The position numbers and the translations under genes were made by a program. Shown here piece after piece: positions 12,770 to 43,233 of a stretch of DNA of 64,000 bases (within the stretch, counting starts at the first letter, position 1; every line of letters starts with the position of its first letter). This DNA is from an uncultured Planctomycetota bacterium (lineage in GTDB: Bacteria > Planctomycetota > JBBTDB01): positions 2,129 through 66,128 of the forward strand of contig CAZHAR010000025.1 in NCBI GenBank assembly GCA_964530615.1. The letters are read 5' to 3'. The notes beneath the pieces are model-generated. The model was not told the origin of the DNA and searched no databases. It saw nothing but the letters and a program-made list of their open reading frames with translations.

Positions 12770-15700
12770 CTATGGTTGATACGTAAAACAATAACGAAAC
12801 CCTATCGTTAAATGAAAATAATCTTGTGGACCATTGGTACGAAAGGCACATTCCAGACCAATGGGCGTCAATCCCCAAGCGTTTCCCCGAATGATATGTA
12901 GAACCTCCCGTTCTTTTTCTTGGTTCGCGGACTTTGCACTTTCTGGATCAAAAAAACCTTCAACCCATTCCGCCACACTTCCTGCCAGATGATGAACTCC
13001 AAAAGGAGACTCATCTTTAGTTTTGTTTTCATCCTTATTTTCCAGTTCCGACCAACTCATTCCTCCATAGCCCTGCGTCAATCGAGCAAATTCTGGATGG
13101 AAATGGTTTCCCCAACTATATTTTCGACCATCGACTCCACGAGCGGCCAGTTCCCATTCTTCTTCGTTAGGGAGTCGGTAAGGTTTTTGATCTCGTTGGG
13201 ATATCCAGGCGATATAGGCTTGAGTATCCAAATAAGAAATGCCACCCAATGGAAGCGATTTCCAATTTTTCCAAGCGTTCCAAGTCTGTAATTCAAAAAC
13301 TTTTAGTATAGAGAGTTTAGAATCATATTCCAACCCTAAAGAAATATTTTTTTCAACAAGTTTCCAGGAAGTTTCCGTCAAAGAGGTTATTTTTGTTGAA
13401 TCTTCAAGCGGTTTTTTATTTTTTTCAACAAGCATTTCTTTTAGGGGGGATGGAATTTTTCCCTGTTTCAGATCCTGTGAAAAATTTTCGTTCCAAGCAC
13501 ACGAAAATAAGGGTGCCGGAATGAGTTTAGGGTTATACTTCAAAAATTTTCCTTTATCTGTCTTTTGTGGCTTCCCTTCTTGATCTTTGTGGATTTCTAG
13601 GAGTTTCCATTTAAAGCTTCGCGGAATTCTTTGTTCCGCTTCCTCAAATTTTTCAGACTCGCAGAGGTGTTCCAAAAATTCGGTATATTCGACTAGAGGG
13701 ACTTCTTCTGTTTTCAAAAAAAACCCGTCTTTGGTTTTTTTCCAGAGTTGAGCGCCTGCGCCTGCGGAGGATTCTCCACCCGATAAAAATCGCATCTGCG
13801 GAATATAAGTAAACCCTGGAACGGCTTGAGTTTTCGGAATCATCCCAACAACCAAAGGTTCTAACGGTTTTGGCTGAAGTTCTGGATGTTGGATCCATAC
13901 AGGAACCCTTAATATCAGGAAATCTGGATTTTTCAAGATGGCTAGATAGCTTCCCGGTTCTAAATCGGCGAGGATGAGTTTTCCTGTCGCATCTGTTTCT
14001 CCCCAAAGAGATTCCAGCGCTAAAGAGAGTTCATAAAAAGAATTCTCAATCACTTCTTTGGTTTCAATTGGGTTCTGAGAGAGTGCTTTCGGGTTTGTAT
14101 AAGGAGTTGGGTTCAAATACCTGTCTTTTTCTAGATAGCGGAACAAATACACTTTTGTTTTTGGCTGAGTTTGGAGAGTGAAGTTTTGTCGGCCTTCAAT
14201 CTTTTTTTCAAAATCACTGCCAGCGTAAGCGGTTCCAAGGTAATCTTGAAGGTCATATCGAGAGGAATAAACGAGTTGATCATTTTTCTGAGTTAGGCCA
14301 ATTTTCCAGAGTTTAAACGAAATCTCTGCAAGTTTTTGTCTGGCTTGTAGATGATGAAAATCGAAATCCAGCACTTTGCGATAGGCTTCCAGAATTTCCC
14401 GATATTTGTTGGATAACAGAGTCTGCTGATCCATTTTTTTGTAGAGATCCGTGGTTTGTTTGGGGAGTCCTGCTTCCCAGGTTTCGATTTTTTGAGACAG
14501 CGCATCCCCTGCCTTCAGATAGTCCTGAATCACGGAACGGTGATATTGATTCCAGAGAACTGTTAAAGAAACGAGGAGCAGTACAAAGGAGAGCGTCATC
14601 CATTTTAACGCAGTGGCATGGCGATGCGCTTTCCTGCGAAGTTTTCGCCCTAGCGAATCGGGCAAGGCGGAAACTTCTTTTCCTTCGAGGAAGCACTGCA
14701 CATCCTTAATCATAGCCGCAACCGAAGGATATCGATTTTCTTTTTCTTTTTCGAGTGCCTTCAGGGTAATCGCAACGAGTTCACGAGGAAGATGGCGAAT
14801 AATTTTTTCTGGAGAGAGAACGGGTTCATTCACCACCTGAGCCAGAACCGTTCGGACATCGCCTTTCGTGCCAAACGGAGGTTGCAAAGTCAACAGTTCG
14901 TATAAGATAGCGCCAAGACTATAGATATCGCTTCGTTCGTCAAGACTTTCAACTTCGCCTAAAGCTTGTTCTGGAGGCATATAAGCAGGGGTTCCGACCA
15001 CGGAGCCTAACATCGTTTTTGATCCATGAGTTTGACGAACGGTTTCAACGGCGTCGGTACTCGTAGGCAAATTTTCTTTTTTTCCAAGAACCTTCGCTAA
15101 ACCCCAATCCATCACAATGACTTCACCAAAGGCGCCCATCATAATATTTCCAGGCTTGAGATCCCGATGAATCACTCGTTTGGAATGAGCGAAACTGAGG
15201 GCATGTCCGATTTGTTGAAAAATTTGTAAAAATCGTGTCAACGAAAATTCTTCTCCGTGAAAAGTGGCTGATTTTTTTTCGCGTAAAATATCTTCCAGCG
15301 TTTTCCCCTTGATAAATTTCATGGTAAAGAAAAGATTTCCTTCTATATCCAGTCCGATATCGTGAATGGGAATAATATTAGGATGTTCTAGTTGTCCAGT
15401 GGTTTGGGCCTCTTCCGCAAACCGCTCCAAAATTTCTTGTTGTTTCTGATATTGAGGTAAAATATATTTTCGGGCAATGTGGCGGTTCAGATCGTTATCT
15501 TTTACGAGATCGACACGGCCCATTCCTCCTTCAGCAATTTCTTGAATATAAGTATATTTATCCGAAGTGATCGGCGAGGCACTGATATTTTGTTTTTGAG
15601 ATAAATCGAGGCTCTGGCGCAAGAATTTTTTCGCAAAGAGTTCATAAATAACGCTAGGATGCTTACTGACTTTTTTTACAGGCGGATTTTTAGGGGAGGT

Positions 15701-15943
15701 TCCGGGAGGTTTTTTGAAAAGAGAAGAAGCGGATTTCGGCGAAAGCGGGTGGGAAGGCGTTAGAATCGTTTTCGATTCGTGGATATCAGAAGGTGAAGCG
15801 GAATTGATCAGGACGGTCGCGTTCGTTTCTGGGGAAGGAACCTCAATGATTGTTTGGATCGGATTGAGCTCTTTTCCCGGAGTAGGAATCCCCGATGAAC
15901 TGGGTTGAGCAGACGGGGTATTTAATAGATTGGGATCGGTCAT
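12770..15943 (-). CDS. Hanks-type Ser/Thr protein kinase with a TM helix and a C-terminal FGE-sulfatase (SUMF1) domain
   Basis: Kinase motifs IAEGGMGRV, HRDLKPGNIM, DWGLAK and GTPAYMPPEQ. FGE motifs YRLPNEEEWELAARG and RGNAW...GFR. Confidence 0.92.
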   Translation of the reverse strand: MTDPNLLNTPSAQPSSSGIPTPGKELNPIQTIIEVPSPETNATVLINSASPSDIHESKTILTPSHPLSPKSASSLFKKPPGTSPKNPPVKKVSKHPSVIYELFAKKFLRQSLDLSQKQNISASPITSDKYTYIQEIAEGGMGRVDLVKDNDLNRHIARKYILPQYQKQQEILERFAEEAQTTGQLEHPNIIPIHDIGLDIEGNLFFTMKFIKGKTLEDILREKKSATFHGEEFSLTRFLQIFQQIGHALSFAHSKRVIHRDLKPGNIMMGAFGEVIVMDWGLAKVLGKKENLPTSTDAVETVRQTHGSKTMLGSVVGTPAYMPPEQALGEVESLDERSDIYSLGAILYELLTLQPPFGTKGDVRTVLAQVVNEPVLSPEKIIRHLPRELVAITLKALEKEKENRYPSVAAMIKDVQCFLEGKEVSALPDSLGRKLRRKAHRHATALKWMTLSFVLLLVSLTVLWNQYHRSVIQDYLKAGDALSQKIETWEAGLPKQTTDLYKKMDQQTLLSNKYREILEAYRKVLDFDFHHLQARQKLAEISFKLWKIGLTQKNDQLVYSSRYDLQDYLGTAYAGSDFEKKIEGRQNFTLQTQPKTKVYLFRYLEKDRYLNPTPYTNPKALSQNPIETKEVIENSFYELSLALESLWGETDATGKLILADLEPGSYLAILKNPDFLILRVPVWIQHPELQPKPLEPLVVGMIPKTQAVPGFTYIPQMRFLSGGESSAGAGAQLWKKTKDGFFLKTEEVPLVEYTEFLEHLCESEKFEEAEQRIPRSFKWKLLEIHKDQEGKPQKTDKGKFLKYNPKLIPAPLFSCAWNENFSQDLKQGKIPSPLKEMLVEKNKKPLEDSTKITSLTETSWKLVEKNISLGLEYDSKLSILKVFELQTWNAWKNWKSLPLGGISYLDTQAYIAWISQRDQKPYRLPNEEEWELAARGVDGRKYSWGNHFHPEFARLTQGYGGMSWSELENKDENKTKDESPFGVHHLAGSVAEWVEGFFDPESAKSANQEKEREVLHIIRGNAWGLTPIGLECAFRTNGPQDYFHLTIGFRYCFTYQP

Positions 15944-19740: not shown

Positions 19741-20328
19741 TTGGAAAATAAAGGCTTAGTATTCGTGACCAAGCAAGAAATTCTTCTCGCTAAAATCGCT
19801 CTGAAAAAAAAATATATCACTCAGCAACAATTAGAGGAGTGTTTGCGTCTTCAAAAAAATTCGGAGCGCCCCAAACCTCTCGTTATTTTGATGATTGAAC
19901 AAGGATTTATTTCCGACAAAGAACTGGAAGCAATTGTTCAATATCAACAAAAATATCAACAAAAAATTCAATCCAAAAAAGAAAATATCCCTGAAAAGAA
20001 ATCGGCAGAATCAAAAAAATCCGAAAAATCGTATATTTCTTGTGGTTTTTGCAAGAAAAAAATTCCTGAAAATTTGCCGTTTTGCCCCCACTGTAAAACA
20101 CAGTTTATGGATGTTTCCAAAGCACAAATGACTCTAGAGAATGCTTATTATTGCGGGTTTTGTAATGGTCCTATTACAGAATTAGATGAAAAATGTCCTA
20201 AGTGTGGAGCGGTCTTTACCACATTAGAAAGTTTAAACGAACAAGTCTATTCTTGCGCCAATTGCAAAAATTTGGTTTCGTTATCGGATCGAAAGTGTCC
20301 AAATTGTGGCGCTCAATTCGATGACTAA
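19741..20328 (+). CDS. Degenerate MshEN/T2SSE_N-like domain plus three double zinc ribbons
   Basis: Two tandem L..I....YIT..QL...L..Q units, then three CxxC-x10-11-CxxC pairs. Confidence 0.75.
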   Translation: MENKGLVFVTKQEILLAKIALKKKYITQQQLEECLRLQKNSERPKPLVILMIEQGFISDKELEAIVQYQQKYQQKIQSKKENIPEKKSAESKKSEKSYISCGFCKKKIPENLPFCPHCKTQFMDVSKAQMTLENAYYCGFCNGPITELDEKCPKCGAVFTTLESLNEQVYSCANCKNLVSLSDRKCPNCGAQFDD

Positions 20329-20576: not shown

Positions 20577-22556
20577 ATGAATCTTGAGGACATCTCTATG
20601 CGGATCGCGGTTTGGAATTTTTTGATTCTTTTCTGCCTTCAAGGGAGCCTGATTCTTCTTGTTTTCCTCCCTCCAGTAGCACCTTCTCCTCATCCAGATA
20701 TTTATAAATTTCTTGGATTCGGGATTTTATTTTTTACAACAATTTTCTTTTATTATTTAAACCTTTCCTTGAACCAAAAGTTCCGTTTCTCTGAAAAAAA
20801 AAATAATTTTTTTACTCTTTTTTTTCTGGGATATCAGTTTTTACTTTTAGCCCTCCATCCATTTTATGAGACGTTACTTCAGGGAAGTCTCTTTTGCCTT
20901 TTTTTTTGTTTTGGCGTTTTTTTGTCGGAAAAACCCTTTCAAAAAAATGTTCGTAGTACGCTTCCATGGATGGGCTTGGTACTTGCCGTCTATGGAATTT
21001 TTCAGAAATGGAACCCGTCTCTTTCGGCGATTGAAGGCGGGTCGATTGGAACATTAGGAAATTCTAATTTTGTAGCTACTTTTTTAGCGCCATTGATTTC
21101 TTTTTCGGTCGGAGAATTTTTCCAAACGCGCCAAAAAAAAATGTTGCTTCCGCTGGTTGTGATGCTATTTTGTCTTTTTCTGACTCGAGGTCGAGCGGGG
21201 TGGCTAGGATTTATGGGTGGGCTTTTTTTTTTACTTCCCCGCCGTCATGGACTTCTCTTAATCCCGCTTTTGTTGGGGGTTTTCGCCCTTTCTCCAAGCT
21301 TTTTTTTCCGTACCTATGATTCGGTGCGTCTCTCCATTTACCGTCAAACACTCACGATGATTCAAGATCATTTTTGGTTTGGAGTGGGTGTTGGACAATT
21401 TGAGAATGTTTTTCGACGGTACCGAGAACCAGAAGAATATTATCTCTCACAAGAAGGAGTCGCCTGTTCCGAGAGCGACTGGCTCCAATGGTTTTCAGAG
21501 TGGGGGGTTCCGGGGACCCTTTTATGGATCATTTTATTGCTTCGAGCCTCTAATGCTCTGCGAAAAACAGATCGCGCGTTGTTTTCAGCGCTGATTTCAC
21601 TATTTATTTGCGGACTTTTTAATTTTCCGATGCATCTTCCTCATGGATTGCTTCTGCTATTCTGGATTTTGGGAAACTCTGGAAGCCTCAGCCTCTCCCC
21701 TAAAATTTCCTTGTTCGTTCCGATCCTAGCACTCGCTTCTTTTCCACTACTTTGGATGGCCGCGATGGGACAACTTTATCAAGAACAAGCTTCGCTTCTG
21801 GGATTTGAAGTTTCAGCCCTAAAAAAATCGCTCTCTTGGTTTCCTCAGGCGGAACGATATGAACTTTTGGGAAAAGCTTACCGAAAACACAATCAATTGA
21901 AAGAAGCACAAGATTGTTATGAAAAAGCGTTACTTCTGGAACCTTCTCGCTATACGTCTTGGTTTGAATTGGGAATGGTCACAGAAGAAATTGATTATTT
22001 TGATCAAGCGCTAAAAATTAATCCGGGCTATTCTCTGGCGCGGTATCAAAAAGCGCGATTAATTTGGAAAAAAAATCAACGTCTGGAAGAAGCGCTTGAA
22101 TGCTACGAAATCCTTCTGGTTAACGTAGAGCAACAAAAAAAAATTGCGCCGCTTCCTTTGAAGAAACAAGCATTATATCAACAGGCCCTCTATGATAAGG
22201 CTTGTATTTATTTGCAAAAAAAAGAATACACTTTGGCCACCGAAGTCCTTCAAAAGCTTCTAATCCAAAACCCTGAGCATCCAGAAGGACTTTTAGAATT
22301 GGGAATTCTTTTTTGTGTGGAGCATCATTTTGCTCAGGGCAAAAAATATCTGGAAGCGGCATTTCAACAAATTCCCCAGCATTCCAGATTACGTTTTAAT
22401 TTGGGCCAACTTTATTATCAAGAGCAGTGTTGGCAAAAAGCGTATGAAATGTTTCTTCCATTAGAGCAAACGGGAGGGCCCTATCAAGAATCTGCACAAA
22501 GATTTCTTCGGGGAATCGAGCAACAAAGAAAAGAGAAAGACTCTCGAAACGATTAA
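20577..22556 (+). CDS. O-antigen ligase/Wzy_C-like membrane protein with C-terminal TPR repeats
   Basis: Motifs GTLGNSNF, LTRGRAGW, R..IY...L.MI.DHFWFGVG.GQF; many TM helices; TPR tail. Confidence 0.85.
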   Translation: MNLEDISMRIAVWNFLILFCLQGSLILLVFLPPVAPSPHPDIYKFLGFGILFFTTIFFYYLNLSLNQKFRFSEKKNNFFTLFFLGYQFLLLALHPFYETLLQGSLFCLFFCFGVFLSEKPFQKNVRSTLPWMGLVLAVYGIFQKWNPSLSAIEGGSIGTLGNSNFVATFLAPLISFSVGEFFQTRQKKMLLPLVVMLFCLFLTRGRAGWLGFMGGLFFLLPRRHGLLLIPLLLGVFALSPSFFFRTYDSVRLSIYRQTLTMIQDHFWFGVGVGQFENVFRRYREPEEYYLSQEGVACSESDWLQWFSEWGVPGTLLWIILLLRASNALRKTDRALFSALISLFICGLFNFPMHLPHGLLLLFWILGNSGSLSLSPKISLFVPILALASFPLLWMAAMGQLYQEQASLLGFEVSALKKSLSWFPQAERYELLGKAYRKHNQLKEAQDCYEKALLLEPSRYTSWFELGMVTEEIDYFDQALKINPGYSLARYQKARLIWKKNQRLEEALECYEILLVNVEQQKKIAPLPLKKQALYQQALYDKACIYLQKKEYTLATEVLQKLLIQNPEHPEGLLELGILFCVEHHFAQGKKYLEAAFQQIPQHSRLRFNLGQLYYQEQCWQKAYEMFLPLEQTGGPYQESAQRFLRGIEQQRKEKDSRND

Positions 22557-22570
22557 TCGCAAATAGTGTG

Positions 22571-23710
22571 TTAAAACGAGCGTCGACCTTCGTATCCAGC
22601 CATAATTTCTTGCATTTTCAAATAATACCAGGCATTTTGCTCTTTATATTCGTCGCTGTCACGACCCCCTTTTCTCAACCAGCCTTCATAACGGGCTCGG
22701 GCTGGAAAAAATTTTGGATGATTATACGCTTCCACTAAAGATTCAAATTTTTGCTTGACTTCAGGGCTATCTGGGTCCTTATTCGTATAGGTATTTGCAT
22801 GTTCCAATGCCCGCACATCTCGGAGTCGTTTCCAATATAACGGATCTTGCTCCAAGTCAACACGGCTCCAACCTGCACGATCATGTTCATCGGGTTCAAT
22901 TGATTTGCTTTTTTTTGGATCCTTGCTTCCGTTAGAAGAACCCTCCTTGCTTTCACTTGAAGAGCTTCCTTGAGAGGAATTATTTCCGGAGTTAGAAGAG
23001 GAAGTACTCTGCGAAGAATTCGATTTATTTTCTGTCGTTTTTGAATTTTCTTGGCCCTGAAACCCGCCAGTTTTAGAGTTTTCAGAAGTCTTTACGTTCC
23101 CTGTATTTTTTTCGTTACTTTGAGGATTTTGGGAATTTTTCGTTCCGTTTCCGGACCCTCCGGTTCCTGAACCTTCGTTTCCTGAAAATCCGCCAGACGC
23201 AGAATTGTTCCCGCCCGAATTTCCAGAAGAGGCGTTTGAAGATTTATTTTCTGAAGCGTTAAAGCCCCCTTGAGAACCAGAGTTGCTAGCGCTGTTTGAA
23301 GCAGAATTTTGACCAGAATTGGATTCTGGCGCGTGAAATCCCCCTGTGGAACTTTTGGATTTTCTGGGATCGTTTCCTGCGGATTGAGAATATTTTTTAG
23401 ATTCAGGCCCCGGAGGAACAAATTTTTCAGATTGTGCCTTCCCTTCGGTAGAAGATTTCAAGTGAGCGCTTTCTTTTTCCGAGCCTCCCGCTAAATTGCC
23501 TGTACTATGAGCACCGGAGTCTTTCGTTGAATCCGAAGCGGCAGAGTCTGATAATTCAGCAATTTCGCGACCGTCTTGGAGAGTTTCTTTTGAAGCTTGA
23601 AAAAGTCCTTTTTGATTGGAACCAAAAACAGCCGCAATTAAAATTCCGGCGATCACCATCAATCCGATTAACAGGATAAATTCGGTCATCCCTTGTGCTC
23701 GATTCCTCAT
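22571..23710 (-). CDS. Flp-type pilin paralog with a long Ser/Gly/Asn-rich linker and an unknown C-terminal domain
   Basis: ATG 23710 has RBS GGAGA. MRNRAQGMTEFILLIGL is a prepilin leader. It aligns with the full length of the adjacent short pilin. Confidence 0.8.
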   Translation of the reverse strand: MRNRAQGMTEFILLIGLMVIAGILIAAVFGSNQKGLFQASKETLQDGREIAELSDSAASDSTKDSGAHSTGNLAGGSEKESAHLKSSTEGKAQSEKFVPPGPESKKYSQSAGNDPRKSKSSTGGFHAPESNSGQNSASNSASNSGSQGGFNASENKSSNASSGNSGGNNSASGGFSGNEGSGTGGSGNGTKNSQNPQSNEKNTGNVKTSENSKTGGFQGQENSKTTENKSNSSQSTSSSNSGNNSSQGSSSSESKEGSSNGSKDPKKSKSIEPDEHDRAGWSRVDLEQDPLYWKRLRDVRALEHANTYTNKDPDSPEVKQKFESLVEAYNHPKFFPARARYEGWLRKGGRDSDEYKEQNAWYYLKMQEIMAGYEGRRSF

Positions 23711-23849
23711 AGATCTTTCTCCAATAAAATCACGCTTTAAAAAAAATGGGGGCCCAAAAGGAATAGAAATAGAGAACGATTTTTTCAAAAAGTTCCTTTA
23801 AAGTTTTCAGAGAGGTATTTTCCAGAGATTTATAGTTAAGGATATCAAC

Positions 23850-23876
23850 AAAAAAACCAACCCCGAAGGGTTGGTT
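23850..23876 (-). terminator. Rho-independent terminator downstream of the short flp gene
   Basis: Minus strand AACCAACCC-TTCG-GGGTTGGTT then a T-run; C(UUCG)G tetraloop. Confidence 0.9.
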
Positions 23877-23907
23877 CTCTTAGACTATTCGGATGAATGA
23901 GAGGAGA

Positions 23908-24147
23908 TCATTCCCCTTCCATTTTACCTGTTTTATGTTTTCCGGAATCAGCGGAATCATCATAAGAACCAGAGTCTTTCATTTCTTTAAATTCGCGACC
24001 ATCTTTGAAGGTCGTGTTTGCACCTTGGAAGAGTGCTTTAATATTGGAACCGAATACGGCAACAATAACAATGAGGGCGATAGCAACGAGGGCAACGATA
24101 ATGATGTATTCGGTCATACCTTGACCGCGACGGCCTGCATTAAACAT
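23908..24147 (-). CDS. flp: Flp family type IVb/Tad pilin
   Basis: RRG|QGMTEYIIIVALVAI with Glu+5 and Tyr+6; 79 aa; RBS AGGAG. Confidence 0.88.
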   Translation of the reverse strand: MFNAGRRGQGMTEYIIIVALVAIALIVIVAVFGSNIKALFQGANTTFKDGREFKEMKDSGSYDDSADSGKHKTGKMEGE

Positions 24148-24452
24148 ATTCCTTACTCCTAAAAATTAGAAGGATTTTCTTGAGAGAGTGGTCTTCCCGT
24201 CCTGTGAGAAGACCGTTACATTTTCATTTAAGGTATAAGCAGATTGTGTACCAAAACAATAAAAAATTATTTTTTTTTATAACTATATATAAATAAAACA
24301 CTTATTTTTTTTGTATTTTTTTTTCACCGAAAATAATGTAAAATTTTTTTTCAATCCAAGAAAAAATTTGTAAAGATTATTAACATTCACCCTTTGGATT
24401 ATTTTTTATTCTCTTCTATTTTAAATTATTATCCATTGAACTATAAAGAGTT

Positions 24453-26324
24453 ATGCAGGAAAAAACCTTCTTTTCAAACAAAATTTTACTTTGTATTTTA
24501 ATCCTCCTCCTCTGCTCTTTTTTTCTGGATATTGGACAACGCGATTTATGGAGCGCTGGAGAAGCCAGAGCCGCCTTGATTGCCGAACGAATGAATAAAG
24601 AAAAGAACTACCTTATTCCGACTATGCCAGAAGGCCCTAGCTACGCAAAACCGCCCTTATTTTATTGGCTCGTTACTTTAGGTCCAACCGAAGACGATGG
24701 ACGCTTTGGAGCCCTTGCAGTTCGGCTCCCTTCTGTCTTGAGTGCAATAATACTAGTTTGTTGCGTTTGTTACGTAGGCGAGCTTTGGTTGGGCCCACAA
24801 ATCGGCTATCTCGCCGCAATCATTCTTTGTACAAACTTAAAATTTTTCTGGATGGCGAGAGTCGGACGGATCGATATGCTTTTGACCCTCTTTATCTTCC
24901 TGACACTGATCGCCGTTTACTGGACTTGGAAGTCTGGAAACCGATTTGGCCTTTTCTTTGCCAGCTTCATTTGCGCTCTTGGAACTCTTGCCAAAGGTCC
25001 CATTGCCCTCTTTCTTCCGGGTCTTGTTATTCTTGTTACCTTGATTTATCAAGATCCTTATCTGTTCCGTAAAAATAATTTTTTACGTCAGTATTCGGGG
25101 TGTCTTCTTGGAGCGTTTCTTTTTTACCTGCTACTCACCGTGCCTTGGTATCTTCTGATACATTATCGAACGTCTGGCGTATTTACCCAGCAATTTCTGT
25201 TTCGACATAATTTGGCGCGCTATATGGGAAGTATTCAGATGTTAGAAAATGTGCTCGATTTAGACTCCTCTGAAACGTTAAGAGACTTTGATACGTCTCA
25301 ACCCTTCTGGTATATGGTTCCACGCCTTTTTGGAGATTTCTTTCCTTGGTCTATCTTCCTTCCCTCCTGTATTTACTTTTTTTTTAAATCGCGATCCCGA
25401 CAGCCAGGAACAGTCTCCTTCTTTGCTTTCTGTGTCGTTGCCTCGATTACTATTTTTCTTTTCTTTTCTATTAGCTCGTTTAAACGGGGAGACTATCTTT
25501 TACCGGTGTTTCCTCCACTAGCGCTCTTGCTAGCTTGTTATTGGAAACGACTTCCTCAAATATCTCCAGAAGTTCGTTGGATTCAGAAAATTTTTATGGG
25601 GAGTTGGTCCCTTTTCTGTCTTATTTTTGCTACGGCTACTCTGATTCCAGATCAATTTTTTACACTTTCATTCTGGGATCGAATTTTGAAAGACGCCGAT
25701 TTTCAAAACTTACAAAAGATCCATCTTTTTTTTAAAGCGTCTCGGTACGCTTGTTTTATTTTTCTTGGTTTTATTCTCCTGAGCCTATTTAGTTTTTTCT
25801 GGGTCGCTAAACGCTCTCCTCCATATTTTTGTCTTTATCTGGGGCTGATCACCAGTGGTTCTTTATCTCTGGTGCTGGTCTTATTTTTTCCTTACTTTGA
25901 CGAAATTCGAAGTTTGAAACCCTTTGTGACTCGCATTCATCAAAGAATGCCCCTCTCTCAACCCCTTATTATTATTGGGAGAGCCTATGATTTTAATGAT
26001 CTTCATTACCACCTTCAAAGACAAATCGAACACATTGAAACGGCCCCAGATTCGAATCGTGGTTATCAAATTCTTCGCGAAACCCCAGACGGAGATTTTG
26101 AGGCTCAATGGATTTTGAAAAAACCTCCTGAAAACTGGGAAGATCAGCAATGGGAATTCTTTTTCCAATTCCTAAAACAACCGAAGCAACACTTTTTTTT
26201 GATTCGAGAAAAAGACTTGAAAAAAATTCCTATTAACGTTCCTTATTATTGCTATACAGATAATAAAGAAAGCGCTCGTAAAATTCTTTTACTCATTTCG
26301 AATAGTCCTCCACCCCCTAAATAA
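24453..26324 (+). CDS. ArnT/GT39-like (PMT family) membrane glycosyltransferase
   Basis: Motifs DLW..GEAR, KPPLFYW, RLPS, ARVGRIDM, LAKGP, PWY, KRGDYLLP. Confidence 0.85.
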   Translation: MQEKTFFSNKILLCILILLLCSFFLDIGQRDLWSAGEARAALIAERMNKEKNYLIPTMPEGPSYAKPPLFYWLVTLGPTEDDGRFGALAVRLPSVLSAIILVCCVCYVGELWLGPQIGYLAAIILCTNLKFFWMARVGRIDMLLTLFIFLTLIAVYWTWKSGNRFGLFFASFICALGTLAKGPIALFLPGLVILVTLIYQDPYLFRKNNFLRQYSGCLLGAFLFYLLLTVPWYLLIHYRTSGVFTQQFLFRHNLARYMGSIQMLENVLDLDSSETLRDFDTSQPFWYMVPRLFGDFFPWSIFLPSCIYFFFKSRSRQPGTVSFFAFCVVASITIFLFFSISSFKRGDYLLPVFPPLALLLACYWKRLPQISPEVRWIQKIFMGSWSLFCLIFATATLIPDQFFTLSFWDRILKDADFQNLQKIHLFFKASRYACFIFLGFILLSLFSFFWVAKRSPPYFCLYLGLITSGSLSLVLVLFFPYFDEIRSLKPFVTRIHQRMPLSQPLIIIGRAYDFNDLHYHLQRQIEHIETAPDSNRGYQILRETPDGDFEAQWILKKPPENWEDQQWEFFFQFLKQPKQHFFLIREKDLKKIPINVPYYCYTDNKESARKILLLISNSPPPPK

Positions 26325-29126: not shown

Positions 29127-30632
29127 TTATTTTTTTTGATTTGGATTCATCGGGGGAGCCGGTGGATTGGGTCGAGCTGGATATTTTGACGGAACTCCAG
29201 TTCCGGTAGGTGGCGGTGCGTAGGCAGGCGGTTTTTGAAAGGAACCTGACGCATAACCCGATCCGGTCGTGGGAGGCGTCTGCCCTCCGGGTAAAGGCGG
29301 GCGATAAGGAGATTGTTGCGGATTTCCTTGTGAATTGCCATAAGGAGGAGGTGAGGAATAGGTTCCCGGCTGATTTTGTGGTTTTGGATAGGCACCCGGA
29401 GGGGTTCCCGGTGTCGAATGAAATGAACCTTGGGTTTGCTGTGGATTATAAGTTCCCGGAGGATGTTGTTGAAGGGTGGATCCTTGGTTTTGAGAATAAG
29501 GCGTTCCGGGACGTCCCACATTTTGGTTTGCCTGAGGGTAAGAAGGTTGCATTCCAGGATTTGCAGGGTTTCCATAGTGAGGTGGAGGCGTTTGCGGACG
29601 TCCTTGTTGAGGGTTATATTGTTGAGGAGAAGCGTTTCCGCCCCAATAGGCTCCCTGAGGATTAGTCACATTTCCGGGAGAATAAGCAGGTTGTTGTGGA
29701 TACCCGGGGGGTTGTTGTGGAGGATATCCATAAGGAGGTGGATTATTATAAGGAGCGGGATTCGTCTGAGGTTGATAGGCGGGCGGTTGGGTCGTGGTTG
29801 GAAACGCGTTTCCATACCCGGGGGGTTGTTGTGGAGGATATCCATAAGGAGACTGCGGAGTATAGGATGGAGGTTGTCCTTGTCCTTGTCCTTGATAGGG
29901 CTGTGGAGTCTGATAGGGTGAAGCGTTGGTGCCATAATTGGAAGAAGAATTGTTATTTTGAGGATAATTCTGGATTGGACTTCCGACAGGCGCAGAAGGC
30001 ATCTTAGGAGCGATTCGGGAACCCCGATTTTGAGAAGTGTTGATATTGGCGTTTCCCGACAATTTTTCAAGAACTAAAGTCGCGATCGCTTTCAATGTTT
30101 CAAAAACACCCGTTCCTTTAAAAGCGACGGCTTCAACGGCAGGGACATGATATTTATTCAACGCATCGTTCATTTCTTGAACGGTATGAATATTTGGAAG
30201 ATCTCGTTTATTGTATTGCAAAACAAAAGGGATTTTGGACAATTCAATTTCATGCTCTTTTAAATTATCTTCCAGATTTTTGAGCGACTCTAGATTTTCT
30301 TTCATTTTCTCTTTTTGAGAATCCGCAACAAAAACGAGACCATCCGCGCCCGTGAGTACCAATTTTCGGGTGGCGTTATAATACGCCTGTCCAGGAACGG
30401 TATAAAGTTGAAATTTTGTTGCCATTCCTGCAATCTGGCCCAAATCTAAAGGTTTATAGTCGAAATAAAGTGTGCGATCTCCTTCAGTGGCAATTGACGT
30501 TAGATTCCCTTTATCTTGATTGGGATCTTTCTCGTGGATAATTTCTAAATTGGTGGTTTTTCCACTTAATCCCGGTCCATAAAAAACAACCTTGCAAGAG
30601 ATTTCTCTCCGGGCGTAATTAATTTGAGGCAT
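29127..30632 (-). CDS. mglA: MglA-family small Ras-like GTPase with an approximately 300-aa Pro/Gln/Tyr/Gly-rich C-terminal extension
   Basis: Motifs KVVFYGPGLSGKTTN, TEGDRTLYFD, YTVPGQAYYNATR and QYNKRDL. Confidence 0.9.
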   Translation of the reverse strand: MPQINYARREISCKVVFYGPGLSGKTTNLEIIHEKDPNQDKGNLTSIATEGDRTLYFDYKPLDLGQIAGMATKFQLYTVPGQAYYNATRKLVLTGADGLVFVADSQKEKMKENLESLKNLEDNLKEHEIELSKIPFVLQYNKRDLPNIHTVQEMNDALNKYHVPAVEAVAFKGTGVFETLKAIATLVLEKLSGNANINTSQNRGSRIAPKMPSAPVGSPIQNYPQNNNSSSNYGTNASPYQTPQPYQGQGQGQPPSYTPQSPYGYPPQQPPGYGNAFPTTTQPPAYQPQTNPAPYNNPPPYGYPPQQPPGYPQQPAYSPGNVTNPQGAYWGGNASPQQYNPQQGRPQTPPPHYGNPANPGMQPSYPQANQNVGRPGTPYSQNQGSTLQQHPPGTYNPQQTQGSFHSTPGTPPGAYPKPQNQPGTYSSPPPYGNSQGNPQQSPYRPPLPGGQTPPTTGSGYASGSFQKPPAYAPPPTGTGVPSKYPARPNPPAPPMNPNQKK

Positions 30633-33280: not shown

Positions 33281-34564
33281 TTAGTCTTTTCCAAGCAATC
33301 GTAGAATATCAATTTCTCTTAGGACTTCGATATCATAACGGAGTCCATCGATATAGTTTGGATGGCTTTCGTAGTCTTTTCCAATAATGATGTAAGAGGT
33401 TCGAACATCGGTTTTTTGTGTCACTTTCCAACCTAACTCTTCGATCATTTTAGCCACTTCTTCGTTTGAATAGCGTCCGACTAAACGACCGGCGAACGTA
33501 AAATATTGGGTTTTAGTCACATCAAAAACTTCGTTGACGATTTGATCTGCGATATCGATGGGATATTCTGTATCCAGATTTTGAGTGATCGCGACAATAG
33601 ACATTTCGTCCAAGACTTTTTTAACTTCAATTTCGCCTTTATCGGAGCGGACCCCTTTCTTCCCAAAGCGGAAGACAGAGAATTTTTGACCGACCGAAAC
33701 TCCGGATTCGCGACCAATATTGATGTAGGCCACACGGTTGGGAAAGTCTACAAAAACGACCTGTCCATCGGGAGCGTTGGGGGCTTCTGCTATTTTTTCC
33801 GAAATAGGGCTTTCCGGTTCTGGATTTTTAATTTTAGCGACGCGATCCAAAACTTCTTCCAACTTGCCTTCCAATTCTATTTTTTCTAAGCGAAATTGTC
33901 CTTTGATGTTGTTTATTTCATCTTTCGCTTCGTTCTTTTCTCGGCGGGCGTTTTCCCGATCGATCATCAAGTTTGCAATTTCTTCCTGCATTAGTTTTTC
34001 TGCGGCGGCTTTATCTTGCAAAAGTTGTTCTACACGAGATTTTTGAATTTTCAAATTCTCTTGTTTGCTACTGCGTTCGGTAGCCACTTCTTTAATTTTT
34101 TGTTCCAGAGCTTCCCGACTCGTTTTTTGTATTTCTTCTTCTTTTTTGATGCGATCTTTAAAGTAAAGAATATAAGATTGGACATTGGCATCCGCTCTTA
34201 ACTCATAGATAGTATCTAATCCGGGAGTTTTAGGATAAATGGGAGTTCCTTCACGACTGGTATTGACGCGTTCTATCCAGGCAAGAAGTGATTCTATAGG
34301 GGTCTGGTTTTCGTCTTTTCGAAAACCGACGCCACAAAGATTTTGCAAAGTCTCTGATTGTCGCTTGACCTCTTCGATTTCGGTTAGAAGTCGGGTGACT
34401 TTTTCGCTACTGGAAACTTTATCTAATTTCAAATCTGAGAGTTCTTTATTGGCGCGAGCGACGCTATCGTGAATGATATACCAAGCATAAATTGTTCCGA
34501 TCAATAAAGTCAGAACAATAACTGCTGGAATAGGTGAAATTCCTTGTTTAGAGCGATATCTCAT
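33281..34564 (-). CDS. Membrane-anchored coiled-coil protein with a beta-barrel domain and a C-terminal BRCT-like domain (paralog 2)
   Basis: N-terminal TM helix; long heptad region; DGQVV..D...AYINIG..GV..GQKF; FAG...YSNEEVAKMIEELGWKV...TSYIIIG. Confidence 0.7.
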   Translation of the reverse strand: MRYRSKQGISPIPAVIVLTLLIGTIYAWYIIHDSVARANKELSDLKLDKVSSSEKVTRLLTEIEEVKRQSETLQNLCGVGFRKDENQTPIESLLAWIERVNTSREGTPIYPKTPGLDTIYELRADANVQSYILYFKDRIKKEEEIQKTSREALEQKIKEVATERSSKQENLKIQKSRVEQLLQDKAAAEKLMQEEIANLMIDRENARREKNEAKDEINNIKGQFRLEKIELEGKLEEVLDRVAKIKNPEPESPISEKIAEAPNAPDGQVVFVDFPNRVAYINIGRESGVSVGQKFSVFRFGKKGVRSDKGEIEVKKVLDEMSIVAITQNLDTEYPIDIADQIVNEVFDVTKTQYFTFAGRLVGRYSNEEVAKMIEELGWKVTQKTDVRTSYIIIGKDYESHPNYIDGLRYDIEVLREIDILRLLGKD

Positions 34565-34576
34565 GACTGTTTCTCC

Positions 34577-36031
34577 TCAATCTCCGACGTATTGAATAAA
34601 ATCTATATCTCGTACGACTTCGAGTCCCATTTCAAGGGCTTTTTTGAAATTAGGATCTTCGTCTAACCACCAAAAATCTTTTTTATCTTCCTCGACTGCG
34701 GCGGCCGCTTTGCCGTCTTCTCCTTCAGCATCAGGAGCGCCTTCGGTTTTCTTAAACGTTTTGTGTGCTTCAATACCGCCAGCAACTAGGATATCGGTGC
34801 GAACGGTGACTGTGGGTTTTCCTTCGCTATCCATTTCCACTTTGGCGCCGATATCTTCGCAAAAACGAATCATATCTTTTACTTTGAATCGGGACCCAAA
34901 GGTTTCGCCAGCAAAAGCGATGTATTTTGGATGTTCAGCATCCCACATAGGGTTCAAGAGATAATCTCCGGTAATGATGGGGTCGTATTTATCGAGTTCT
35001 TCCAAAATCACTACGCGACTCATATCTTCTTCCACTTGGTTGACTTCCACTTTCCCTTTGTAGCGAATTTGGCGTTCAGAACCATAACGGAAGACCATAA
35101 ATTTGAGTCCTTTGACCACATTCTTACGAGAACCGATATTGATATGGGTTAAACGGGTAATCGGATCGGAATAAACAATTTCGCCATCGGGCTCTTCATA
35201 GGATAATTTAAATAATTTCGCCGTTTTTTCAGAAGAAATTTTATCGGGTCGTTTTCCCAATTTTCGTTGACGAATCAAGATTTTAATTTCCTGACGTTGG
35301 CTACTGAGTTTAGAGCGCAACTGAGACAAAACACGTTTATTTTTCTTTTTAACGTCTTCGATTTGGGTTTTTATTTCGCGAGCCACATTGTAGGCTTCTT
35401 CTTTTTCGGTCGTGAGTTTAGTCACCATCTCTGCTTTTTTGGAATTAATTTGATTGATTTCTTCTTCTAAAGCGGCAATTCTGGCGACGAGAATAGAACT
35501 ACGATCATCTTTTTGAGAGCGTTCTTCATCTAAATAAGCTCGTGTTTTTTCAACATCGCTATTGAGAATAGCATTTTGTTCAAGCACGTTGGCATAATGA
35601 GGTTGAAGGGCCTCTATAAGCGTATGGAGATTCAAAGTTAAAGTGACCGGAATAGCTTCTTCTTCAACAAAGTCAATCTTCCCAACAAGTGCGGGATATT
35701 TGTAGTTTTGATTGTCGTCTTTTTCTCCTGCAAAAGACTTCAAGGTTTCTTTGACATCAGCGATTCTGATGGATTCTCCGGCTCCGATTTGAAAACCGAA
35801 TCCCATCAAGTTAGAAATTCCAGTGACTTCTTGCACGATGCTCAGTTTTTGCTGTTTTAGGATATCCATATCCTTTCCAGGCGGCATCTTTTCCGCGTCA
35901 TGGTTTTTCAGGCGGAGTTGGACCTGCGTAAATTTGTCGTAATCATTATAAGTAAATGCACCCATAATTAAGGTGAACGCAATGAATAGAACTAGAGGAA
36001 TTGGCGAATCCCCTCGCTTAGAACCAAACAT
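34577..36031 (-). CDS. Membrane-anchored coiled-coil protein with a beta-barrel domain and a C-terminal BRCT-like domain (paralog 1)
   Basis: Same architecture: DGEIV..D...THINIG..NV..GLKF and FAGE...FKVKDMIRFCEDIGAKV...TDILVAG. Confidence 0.7.
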   Translation of the reverse strand: MFGSKRGDSPIPLVLFIAFTLIMGAFTYNDYDKFTQVQLRLKNHDAEKMPPGKDMDILKQQKLSIVQEVTGISNLMGFGFQIGAGESIRIADVKETLKSFAGEKDDNQNYKYPALVGKIDFVEEEAIPVTLTLNLHTLIEALQPHYANVLEQNAILNSDVEKTRAYLDEERSQKDDRSSILVARIAALEEEINQINSKKAEMVTKLTTEKEEAYNVAREIKTQIEDVKKKNKRVLSQLRSKLSSQRQEIKILIRQRKLGKRPDKISSEKTAKLFKLSYEEPDGEIVYSDPITRLTHINIGSRKNVVKGLKFMVFRYGSERQIRYKGKVEVNQVEEDMSRVVILEELDKYDPIITGDYLLNPMWDAEHPKYIAFAGETFGSRFKVKDMIRFCEDIGAKVEMDSEGKPTVTVRTDILVAGGIEAHKTFKKTEGAPDAEGEDGKAAAAVEEDKKDFWWLDEDPNFKKALEMGLEVVRDIDFIQYVGD

Positions 36032-42129: not shown

Positions 42130-43233
42130 TTAGAAGCTGAAATCGAAATCCGTGGCTTTTGAGCCTTTATTAATTCCACGAATCGCCATCTTTAATTCAT
42201 CCGGCTTATCGGAAGCGCCCATCGCATCTTCTAGAGAAATAAATTCTCCTTTATAGAGGACTAACAGGGATTGATTAAAGGTTTGAGAGCCATAGTATTC
42301 GCCTTCTTCCATACATTTGGGAAGATCTTTGGTTTTTCCTTCGTACAGAAGTTCTCGCATCGAGGGAGAGGCCATTAAAATTTCGACCGCTGGAACACGT
42401 CCTAATCCTACTTTTTTCTTAATTAACCGCAAAGAAACAATTCCAGCAATGGTAAGCGAAAGCTGTGTTCTGAGCAAGCCATGTTGATGCGGAGGGAAGT
42501 ACGACATAATGCGTTCGACCGTTTGTGTTGCGTTAATTGTATGGAGTGTTGAATACAAAACGTGTCCGGTTTCCGCGGCATGAATCGCCGCTTCAATCGT
42601 CAGAACATCGCGCATTTCTCCCACAAGAATCATGTCTGGAGATTGACGCATCGCGTGTTTCAAGGCGTGGGAAAAAGAATGGGTATCAATTCCGACTTCG
42701 CGTTGTGAAATAATGCATTTTTTTTCTTGATGGATAAATTCGACCGGATCTTCAACCGTAACAAGGTGTCGACTTGTCATACGATTGGCATAATCTAGCA
42801 TTGCGGCAAGTGTTGTCGATTTTCCAGAACCTGCAATTCCTGTGATCAGAACCATTCCTCGGTGGAGCAGTGCGAGTTTTTCCATGGGTTCACGAGGTAA
42901 GTGAAGTTCTTCAAAAGGAGGAATTCGGCTATTAATATGACGAAAAACAAATCCAAGTTCGCCTTGTTGAACATAGACGTTGACGCGAAAACGTCCGACC
43001 CCTTGGCAGATATAAGAAGTATCCGCTTCTTTTCCTTTTTGAAAATCATCCCACATTCCTTCTTCCACAATCGCTTCAAAAAGGGAACGAGAAAACTCTC
43101 TTGTGGTGGGTTGCTCCTCTAAAAAGCGAATTTTCCCATCGATTCGAGCCGAGGGACGACTTCCTGTTTTTATGAAAAGGTCGGACGCATTTTCTTGCAC
43201 CATACGGCGAAAGTAAGTATTAACATCAATCAC
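42130..43233 (-). CDS. pilT: PilT/PilU-family type IV pilus retraction ATPase
   Basis: Walker A GIAGSGKSTT; TVEDPVEF; SQREVG; ILVGEMRD; AAETGH..YSTLHT. Confidence 0.88.
   Translation of the reverse strand: MIDVNTYFRRMVQENASDLFIKTGSRPSARIDGKIRFLEEQPTTREFSRSLFEAIVEEGMWDDFQKGKEADTSYICQGVGRFRVNVYVQQGELGFVFRHINSRIPPFEELHLPREPMEKLALLHRGMVLITGIAGSGKSTTLAAMLDYANRMTSRHLVTVEDPVEFIHQEKKCIISQREVGIDTHSFSHALKHAMRQSPDMILVGEMRDVLTIEAAIHAAETGHVLYSTLHTINATQTVERIMSYFPPHQHGLLRTQLSLTIAGIVSLRLIKKKVGLGRVPAVEILMASPSMRELLYEGKTKDLPKCMEEGEYYGSQTFNQSLLVLYKGEFISLEDAMGASDKPDELKMAIRGINKGSKATDFDFSF

Follow-up and report, generated by a model that had tools for sequence, protein, structure and literature searches.

Whether a pilin of the Flp type can itself carry a module at its exposed end is the question raised by two adjacent genes of an uncultured Planctomycetota bacterium. 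The genes lie at 22571-24147 on the reverse strand of a stretch of 64,000 nucleotides (contig CAZHAR010000025.1, positions 2,129 to 66,128), which was analysed as a whole and is called the window below. Among type IV filaments, Tad/Flp pili count as the most minimal, consisting of bare helices without a globular domain, and their functional diversity is currently ascribed to tip complexes of the TadE/F/G type. The window encodes a short Flp-like prepilin and a much longer paralogue, in which a pilin head is followed by a tether and a C-terminal domain. The most economical reading, which is favoured here tentatively and at slightly less than even chances, is that of a major Flp pilin together with a low-abundance modular Flp pilin. 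If this is true, a Flp subunit with its own tethered module would represent a second, simpler route to pilus function, and the idea of the modular pilin, documented so far for type IVa and type IVb, would be extended to type IVc.

Duplication of the pilin gene

The short gene (23908-24147, reverse strand) encodes a Flp-like prepilin of 79 amino acids (aa). The protein opens with MFNAGRRGQGMTEYIIIVALVAIALIVIVAVFGSN and comprises the leader MFNAGRRG, the motif QGMTEY, a hydrophobic helix and an acidic tail rich in Ser and Asp; an AGGAG Shine-Dalgarno sequence is located 8 nt 5' of the gene start. The long paralogue occupies 22571-23710 (reverse strand; 379 aa plus stop). In the mechanical list of open reading frames (ORFs) it was given as 405 aa from an upstream TTG. 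The ATG at 23710 was preferred as the better start, because it has a GGAG Shine-Dalgarno sequence, was one gene caller's choice (L027), and is shared with both orthologues. Two orthologous loci of the long gene (L001 and L002) and the two orthologous long proteins (P0003 and P0005) were used for comparison, and in all two short copies (window and L001) and three long copies were compared.

BLASTP comparison of the two window proteins revealed 38 identical residues of 72 (53%; E = 2e-25), in an alignment that runs from residue 4 to 75 in the long protein and from residue 7 to 78 in its short counterpart. The alignment spans the entire short protein, as had been claimed in a preliminary description of this locus, and the motifs quoted there could all be found. 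The pilin module of the long protein (residues 1-75; 23486-23710, reverse strand) begins with MRNRA/QGMTEF and continues with a hydrophobic helix and the segments AVFGSNQKGLFQ...DGRE...DSGAHSTGNLAG, and the acidic tail of the short pilin is included in the duplicated segment. The pair is a true duplication with a C-terminal graft on the long copy.

Between the window and L001 (6217-6456) the short pilin is 91% identical, with a synonymous divergence (dS) of 0.65. This low value may reflect either constraint on silent sites or exchange or conversion. The long gene beside it is 42-51% identical to that of L001 overall, depending on the alignment, and its synonymous sites are saturated (dS 1.4-3.3).

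Architecture and conservation of the long protein

AlphaFold2 modelling of the full long protein from a three-sequence alignment placed one helix at residues 5-50, left residues 56-274 unstructured (predicted local distance difference test, pLDDT, below 50) and predicted a helical domain at residues 275-377. The preliminary description had proposed an S/G/N/E/K-rich linker of about 190 aa and a charged, aromatic helical domain of about 105 aa, and both could be recognised. The linker corresponds to residues 76-270, which are rich in S, G, N, K and E (S 55, G 30 and N 26 of 195), and the domain to residues 271-379, which are predicted to be helical.

Within the linker, a junction motif, GKAQSEKFVPPGPESKKY (residues 90-107; 23390-23443, reverse strand), shows little variation among the three long proteins and has no counterpart in the short pilin; columns G90-S94 and F97-Y107 of the three-protein alignment do not vary. 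It is followed by a disordered S/G/N-rich tether (residues 108-270; 22901-23389, reverse strand), where nearly all residues are S, G, N, K, E, T or Q (S 49, G 27 and N 26 of 163). Four GGF motifs occur along the tether, spaced 25-42 residues apart, and every Phe of the tether falls within such a motif, in the window protein (4/4) as well as in P0003 (4/4) and P0005 (6/6). Given this GGF pattern, the tether is not featureless. Its length among the orthologues ranges from 163 to 259 residues, the latter in P0005. Recent tandem duplication was considered as the origin of the tether and rejected, with the DNA showing only one 15-bp repeat of 2.9 copies. When residues 1-110 were used as a query with a filter for long proteins, the same three proteins were the only long ones with this pilin head.

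The C-terminal domain (residues 271-379, 109 aa; 22574-22900, reverse strand) is predicted to be helical and abounds in charged and aromatic residues. Exhaustive HMMER searching of 1.84 billion representative proteins revealed two relatives only, P0003 (87% identical) and P0005 (64%). The same two were returned by a word-indexed search with the full long protein, together with a truncated copy of the window's own gene, and a scan of Joint Genome Institute (JGI) metagenome contigs yielded no relatives of the domain beyond the two orthologues. The domain had no match in Pfam (E up to 10) or NCBIfam, and the best result of a profile search against the PDB had an E value of 0.47. Modelled alone by AlphaFold2, it folded into four to five helices with low confidence (pLDDT 61.5). 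The Foldseek comparison proposed in the preliminary description gave no fold match against the PDB; the best results (E = 1.8) were generic helical hairpins, and a pLDDT-61 model makes such matches meaningless.

Nei-Gojobori analysis of the C-terminal domain gave ratios of nonsynonymous to synonymous divergence (dN/dS) of 0.04 against L002 and 0.08 against L001, with synonymous sites near saturation; the corresponding values of the pilin module were 0.04 and 0.25. The strong purifying selection acting on the C-terminal domain, taken together with its few relatives, shows it to be a selected, lineage-restricted fold.

A conserved terminator and transcription in groundwater

The strong UUCG terminator that had been described between the two genes was borne out by RNA folding. 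This intrinsic terminator or attenuator (23848-23879, reverse strand) consists of a 10-bp GC-rich stem with a UUCG loop, GAACCAACCC-UUCG-GGGUUGGUU, followed by a U7 tract; its folding energy is -15.4 kcal/mol (z = -3.9), and none of 200 shuffled sequences was as stable. A consensus terminator scan reported none here and overlooked the hairpin that is clear on folding, probably because the U-tract, being able to pair with A residues that precede the hairpin, was counted as stem. No Rfam family matched in the window. The hairpin is kept in three lineages at -15 to -16 kcal/mol. In L002 the stem is unchanged and the loop is ACAC, and in L001 the hairpin reads GAAGCCAACCU-AUAAAC-AGGUUGGCUUC, where two pairs have been exchanged through compensatory changes in both arms of the stem (A-U replaced by G-C, and C-G by U-A).

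The locus could be placed in groundwater of the Hainich well H51 by contig names; the public contigs of this organism measure only 1-4 kb, those matching the end genes of the window 2-4 kb. Of its sampled words, 37-67% were present in three aquifer metatranscriptomes (X3, X4 and X5). RNA contigs span 22567-24178, and none covers the flanking Wzy_C or PMT_2 genes. Read-through, which had been suggested as a check, could be observed, as the terminator is crossed by the contigs X3 23504-23952 and X4 23779-23952. In X3 the depth was 15-22 over the short gene and 3.7-6.5 over the long gene, and in X4 it was 5-9 and 2.4-3.5, respectively; the short gene was thus about 2-5 times deeper in two of the three RNA runs. 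The DNA depth of two DNA runs was flat (about 4-6) over both genes and their flanks, so that carry-over of DNA does not account for the RNA signal.

Both genes are transcribed in the aquifer, and the tail of the long gene is expressed in situ. The preliminary description had named an unconserved and unexpressed tail as grounds for abandoning it; the tail is conserved (87% and 64% identity; dN/dS 0.04 and 0.08) and occurs in the aquifer RNA. A GC-rich hairpin, a U-tract, conservation, a drop in RNA and read-through, all expected of an attenuator, were found together here, the contig depth being semi-quantitative. The conserved terminator passes only part of the transcripts onward, and this leakiness, together with the greater depth of the short gene, agrees with a major subunit that is abundant and a long one that is less so.

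A sigma-54-like -24/-12 element, TGGTAC-N5-CTGCT, could be seen at 24238-24253 (reverse strand), about 90-100 nt 5' of the start codon of the short pilin, and is a weak candidate. At the matching place in L001 (6100-6115, forward strand) the element is TGGTCC-N5-ATGCT, in which GG-N10-GC is kept in an intergenic region that is otherwise very AT-rich and diverged. The sigma-54 pattern with two mismatches occurs in the window at chance frequency (20 found, 18.7 expected).

Relationship to Flp pilins

The motif RRG/QGMTEY of the short protein is a canonical G/XXXXEY and is present in both genomes. The Flp cleavage motif is given as G/XXXXE, and Flp proteins are typically 50-80 aa long (PMC12075869). 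Scanning of GTDB representative genomes returned 23 loci with relatives, distributed among Planctomycetia, Myxococcota, Holophagae, Gammaproteobacteria and candidate phyla. QGMTEY was present in 22 pilins of these 23 loci, all of them short after over-extended ORF starts had been discounted. A T2SSE ATPase was encoded 2-7 kb downstream on the same strand in eight of the 23 loci. Pfam analysis revealed a TadG-like protein, RcpC, a secretin, a CpaF-type ATPase and two T2SSF (TadB/C-type) proteins behind the pilin of L006, and RcpC, a secretin and a CpaF-type ATPase behind that of L014. With Tad-locus genes beside its relatives, the head therefore belongs to a pilin lineage used by Tad machines.

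In its layout the short protein resembles the Flp/Fap pilins, such as those of flp-1/flp-2 in Aggregatibacter actinomycetemcomitans and PilA in Caulobacter crescentus, being a short protein with a basic leader, G/XXXXEY, one hydrophobic helix and a polar C-terminal end. The presence of two tandem paralogous genes also recalls flp-1/flp-2; the tad locus of A. actinomycetemcomitans contains a pair of flp genes, flp-1 being the indispensable one (PMC6963667). Unlike the Flp/Fap pilins, the window genes lie away from Tad machinery and have Ile instead of the conserved Gly at position 7, and the second copy is 379 aa long and lacks Gly-1 and Tyr+6.

Two side observations concern the surroundings of such genes. 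In a Planctomycetales metagenome-assembled genome (L009, 3193-7781), a 77-aa QGMTEY pilin with an acidic tail is located between genes for a Glycos_transf_4 protein (WecA/MraY-like; GT4 phosphoglycosyltransferase) and a Polysacc_synt (Wzx-type) flippase, with no adjoining Tad genes. The window itself encodes a lone retraction ATPase of the type IVa PilT/PilU family (42130-43233, reverse strand; TIGR01420, 408 bits) with no pilus genes around it; because of this ATPase, the organism probably has a type IVa system somewhere as well.

Proposed filament and competing explanations

The short protein would act as major subunit in a Tad-type filament, with the genes of the machinery situated elsewhere, as they are for KilP, the orphan major pilin of Myxococcus. 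The long protein would enter the same filament through its pilin helix, at low stoichiometry, and could reside at the tip or be scattered along the shaft. The tether would hold the C-terminal domain off the fibre as a binding head, since Flp C-termini face the filament surface. In the Caulobacter Tad pilus the pilin C-terminus is on the filament surface (PMC10710030), and a C-terminal graft is therefore sterically plausible. The Ser-rich tether would probably be O-glycosylated by one or both of the flanking GT-C-type enzymes.

Several results weigh against this arrangement. The short protein matched PF04964 (Flp_Fap) with E = 1.8e-6, but its 28.1 bits fall short of the gathering score (32.2; the L001 short orthologue received 27.5 bits), and the long protein had no match to this family. 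Pfam searches covering practically every ORF of at least 120 aa revealed no Tad gene in the window, as had been claimed before, and the PilT/PilU-family ATPase was the sole pilus-related extra. When the motif is aligned in the manner of classical Flp, the three long proteins have A, T and K at position -1, where the two short copies have Gly; at position +6 they have F, F and I, where the two short copies and all 22 relatives have Tyr. In the Caulobacter Tad pilus, Tyr6 is placed below the N-terminus of the following subunit and maintains the helical register (PMC10710030). The RNA evidence consists of unstranded assembled contigs of low depth (2-22) from three small metatranscriptomes, and X5 covers the long gene and not the short one. 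Since X5 shows this coverage and the contigs of X4 and X5 break near 23777-23784, a separate promoter in front of the long gene is possible. Synteny with L001 is as strong for the unrelated genes of an FAA-hydrolase and a peptidase as for the glycosyltransferase genes described below, and synteny alone therefore proves no functional link to the latter. Finally, no function can be read from the low-confidence model of the C-terminal domain. The earlier proposal of an abundant major and a rare minor pilin thus stands in part: the conserved terminator, the contigs that cross it and the roughly 2-5 times greater depth of the short gene in two runs support it, and the lack of Gly-1 and Tyr+6 in the long copies and the run X5, in which the short gene is not covered, speak against it.

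The main rival, a possible though doubtful explanation, regards the long protein as an uncleaved, pilin-derived bitopic anchor of the inner membrane with its N-terminus inside. Its tether would span the periplasm and its domain would reach the wall, the outer membrane or the pilus machine. By means of the pilin helix that it retains, the protein could regulate the base of the Flp filament, cap it or anchor it. A basic leader followed by a hydrophobic helix of 22 residues, as present at the N-terminus of the long protein, would suit a signal anchor, and the replacements at -1 and +6 point the same way when set against the G and Y kept in the short copies and the 22 relatives, of which 20 have Gly at -1 and all have Tyr at +6. 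However, the long protein keeps Glu+5 and the invariant QG, and these, along with the whole packing helix and tail, are under purifying selection, whereas an anchor would need hydrophobicity alone. The two relatives with Ala at -1 (L003 and L016) are planctomycete short pilins, which suggests that Ala may be tolerated, or that cleavage may occur after the invariant QG. This QG is common to all five proteins and could serve as an alternative cleavage site, but this would put Glu at +3. An operon with an attenuating terminator is also typical of a pair of major and minor subunits.

A bolder version of the modular Flp pilin may also be considered, although we regard it as unlikely. Here the long protein would be a founding Tad (type IVc) pilin with a glycosylated, nucleoporin-FG-like tether, in which S/G/N spacers separate spaced GGF 'stickers', and with a new helical binding domain. 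Interspersed along the Flp filament, it would make a 'bottle-brush' of the thin helical fibre, and the tethers could stick to each other or to surfaces as a cohesive mesh.

It is improbable that neither protein is a pilus subunit and that both are instead small proteins of the membrane or secreted ones, equipped with a class III-like signal sequence and used by another system, for instance a pseudopilus like that of type II secretion systems or a glycoprotein surface layer made with the Wzy_C and PMT_2 enzymes. The sub-gathering Flp_Fap score, the lack of Tad genes within 64 kb, where only a type IVa PilT-family ATPase is encoded, and the position of the planctomycete relative in L009 between phosphoglycosyltransferase and flippase genes instead of Tad genes would agree with such a role. 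Against it, the N-terminal motif is identical to that of the pilins heading the verified Tad loci in L006 and L014, the size of the short protein, its all-helical prediction and its E+5/Y+6 suit Flp, and orphan major Flp genes are known, as in the case of KilP (PMC12075869).

Hardly any weight can be given to the idea that the long ORF is a decaying duplicate or an annotation artefact whose low-complexity region and tail are read-through of non-coding DNA, for although its centre is of low complexity and only three homologues exist in public data, this is already contradicted by the selection and expression data, namely a frame intact in three diverged lineages, a tail dN/dS of 0.04-0.08 with saturated synonymous sites, conserved GGF and junction motifs, a strong Shine-Dalgarno sequence and transcription of the long gene in three metatranscriptomes.

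The loss of Gly-1 and Tyr+6 poses a question of wider interest, namely whether a pilin paralogue without the cleavage-site glycine is still built into the fibre or has become a membrane anchor. The practical weight of the case is limited, consisting of three sequences from uncultured groundwater bacteria and a head domain without an inferable activity.

Comparison with modular and Kil pilins

Modular type IV pilins have been described in Streptococcus sanguinis, where PilB combines a pilin with a vWA module and PilC with a lectin module, and in enterotoxigenic Escherichia coli (ETEC) as CofB (PMC8179133). Their abundance is low, and their presumed place of display is the tip of the filament or, where the linker is flexible, the length of its shaft; the survey was based on IPR012902 and does not mention Flp or Tad (PMC8179133). 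The long protein is similar in consisting of an N-terminal pilin module and a grafted C-terminal module: its pilin module shares 53% identity with the short pilin, and its C-terminal 109 aa are under selection and predicted to be helical. Modular type IV pilins are of type IVa or IVb; their pilin domain is globular (IPR012902), and their linker is short. In contrast, the carrier here is a bare Flp helix with about 165-195 disordered linker residues and a module of no known family, and its leader is Flp-like instead of G/FTLIE-like as in IPR012902 pilins.

The Kil pilus of Myxococcus xanthus consists of the orphan major pilin KilP, the Flp adapters KilK/KilO and the tip complexes KilL/M/N (PMC12075869). 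Function of Myxococcus Tad pili derives from TadE/F/G-like tip trimers, and the Flp adapters are low-expressed (PMC12075869). The window shares with Kil a major Flp gene away from its machine, an extra Flp paralogue at low transcript level and variable domains on what would be a Tad pilus; several of the QGMTEY relatives found here are myxococcal. It differs from Kil in that the variable domains of the latter are carried by TadE/F/G-like minor pilins in a compact trimeric tip, not by a long-tethered Flp paralogue, and no TadE/F/G genes could be seen in the window. Cargo on a Flp paralogue by way of a very long tether is a variant of the modular-pilin and Kil themes.

Flanking genes and possible glycosylation

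The pilin genes are flanked by two candidate glycosylation enzymes. The convergent neighbour (20577-22556, forward strand) encodes a polytopic Wzy_C protein of the O-antigen-ligase family with C-terminal TPR (Pfam Wzy_C, 54.3 bits, plus TPR), and the divergent neighbour (24453-26324, forward strand) encodes a PMT_2/ArnT-like GT-C glycosyltransferase (Pfam PMT_2, 40.1 bits; NCBIfam ArnT, E = 3.5e-34, below cut-off). The gene order in L001 is identical, running PMT_2, short, long, Wzy_C-TPR, small ORF and zinc-ribbon protein, and a PMT_2-type neighbour is also present in L026. A TPR protein adjacent to the pilin in L003 was considered as a counterpart of the Wzy_C-TPR protein and rejected, as BLASTP revealed no homology to either window enzyme.

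Pilin O-glycosylation loci include pilA-tfpO of Pseudomonas aeruginosa, with a Wzy_C-family O-oligosaccharyltransferase, and pilA-tfpW, with a GT-C arabinosyltransferase, and PglL acts in Neisseria. As in the pilA-tfpO and pilA-tfpW loci, a pilin gene here adjoins a Wzy_C-family enzyme and a GT-C glycosyltransferase, and the candidate acceptor is a Ser-rich exposed segment. The differences are that only a generic Wzy_C domain is present, in an unusual fusion to TPR, that the enzymes are on opposite strands from the pilins, and that no RNA contigs of the enzymes were found in the small metatranscriptomes. The Ser-rich tether and the pilin tails may reasonably be expected to be O-glycosylated, with Wzy_C-TPR as a candidate pilin O-glycosylation enzyme and the PMT_2/ArnT-like protein as a candidate glycosyltransferase for the tether.

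Adjoining the Wzy_C-TPR gene, a 195-aa protein (19741-20328, forward strand) has a sub-threshold MshE-related cyclic di-GMP (c-di-GMP)-binding motif followed by double zinc ribbons. It matched NF053729 with E = 1e-6 and 28.4 bits, the cut-off being 38, and its counterpart in L001 (10327-10833, reverse strand) also lies by the Wzy_C-TPR gene.

Other features of the window

Further genes of the window, all on the reverse strand, include five consecutive ORFs of 278, 319, 327, 143 and 312 aa at 529-5531, with no Pfam match at E <= 1e-5, and two adjacent ORFs of 427 and 484 aa at 33281-36031, with no Pfam match. A 1057-aa protein (12770-15943) combines a Ser/Thr protein kinase domain with a C-terminal FGE-sulfatase (formylglycine-generating-enzyme-like) domain, and a 501-aa protein (29127-30632) carries an N-terminal Arf/Ras-like small-GTPase domain.

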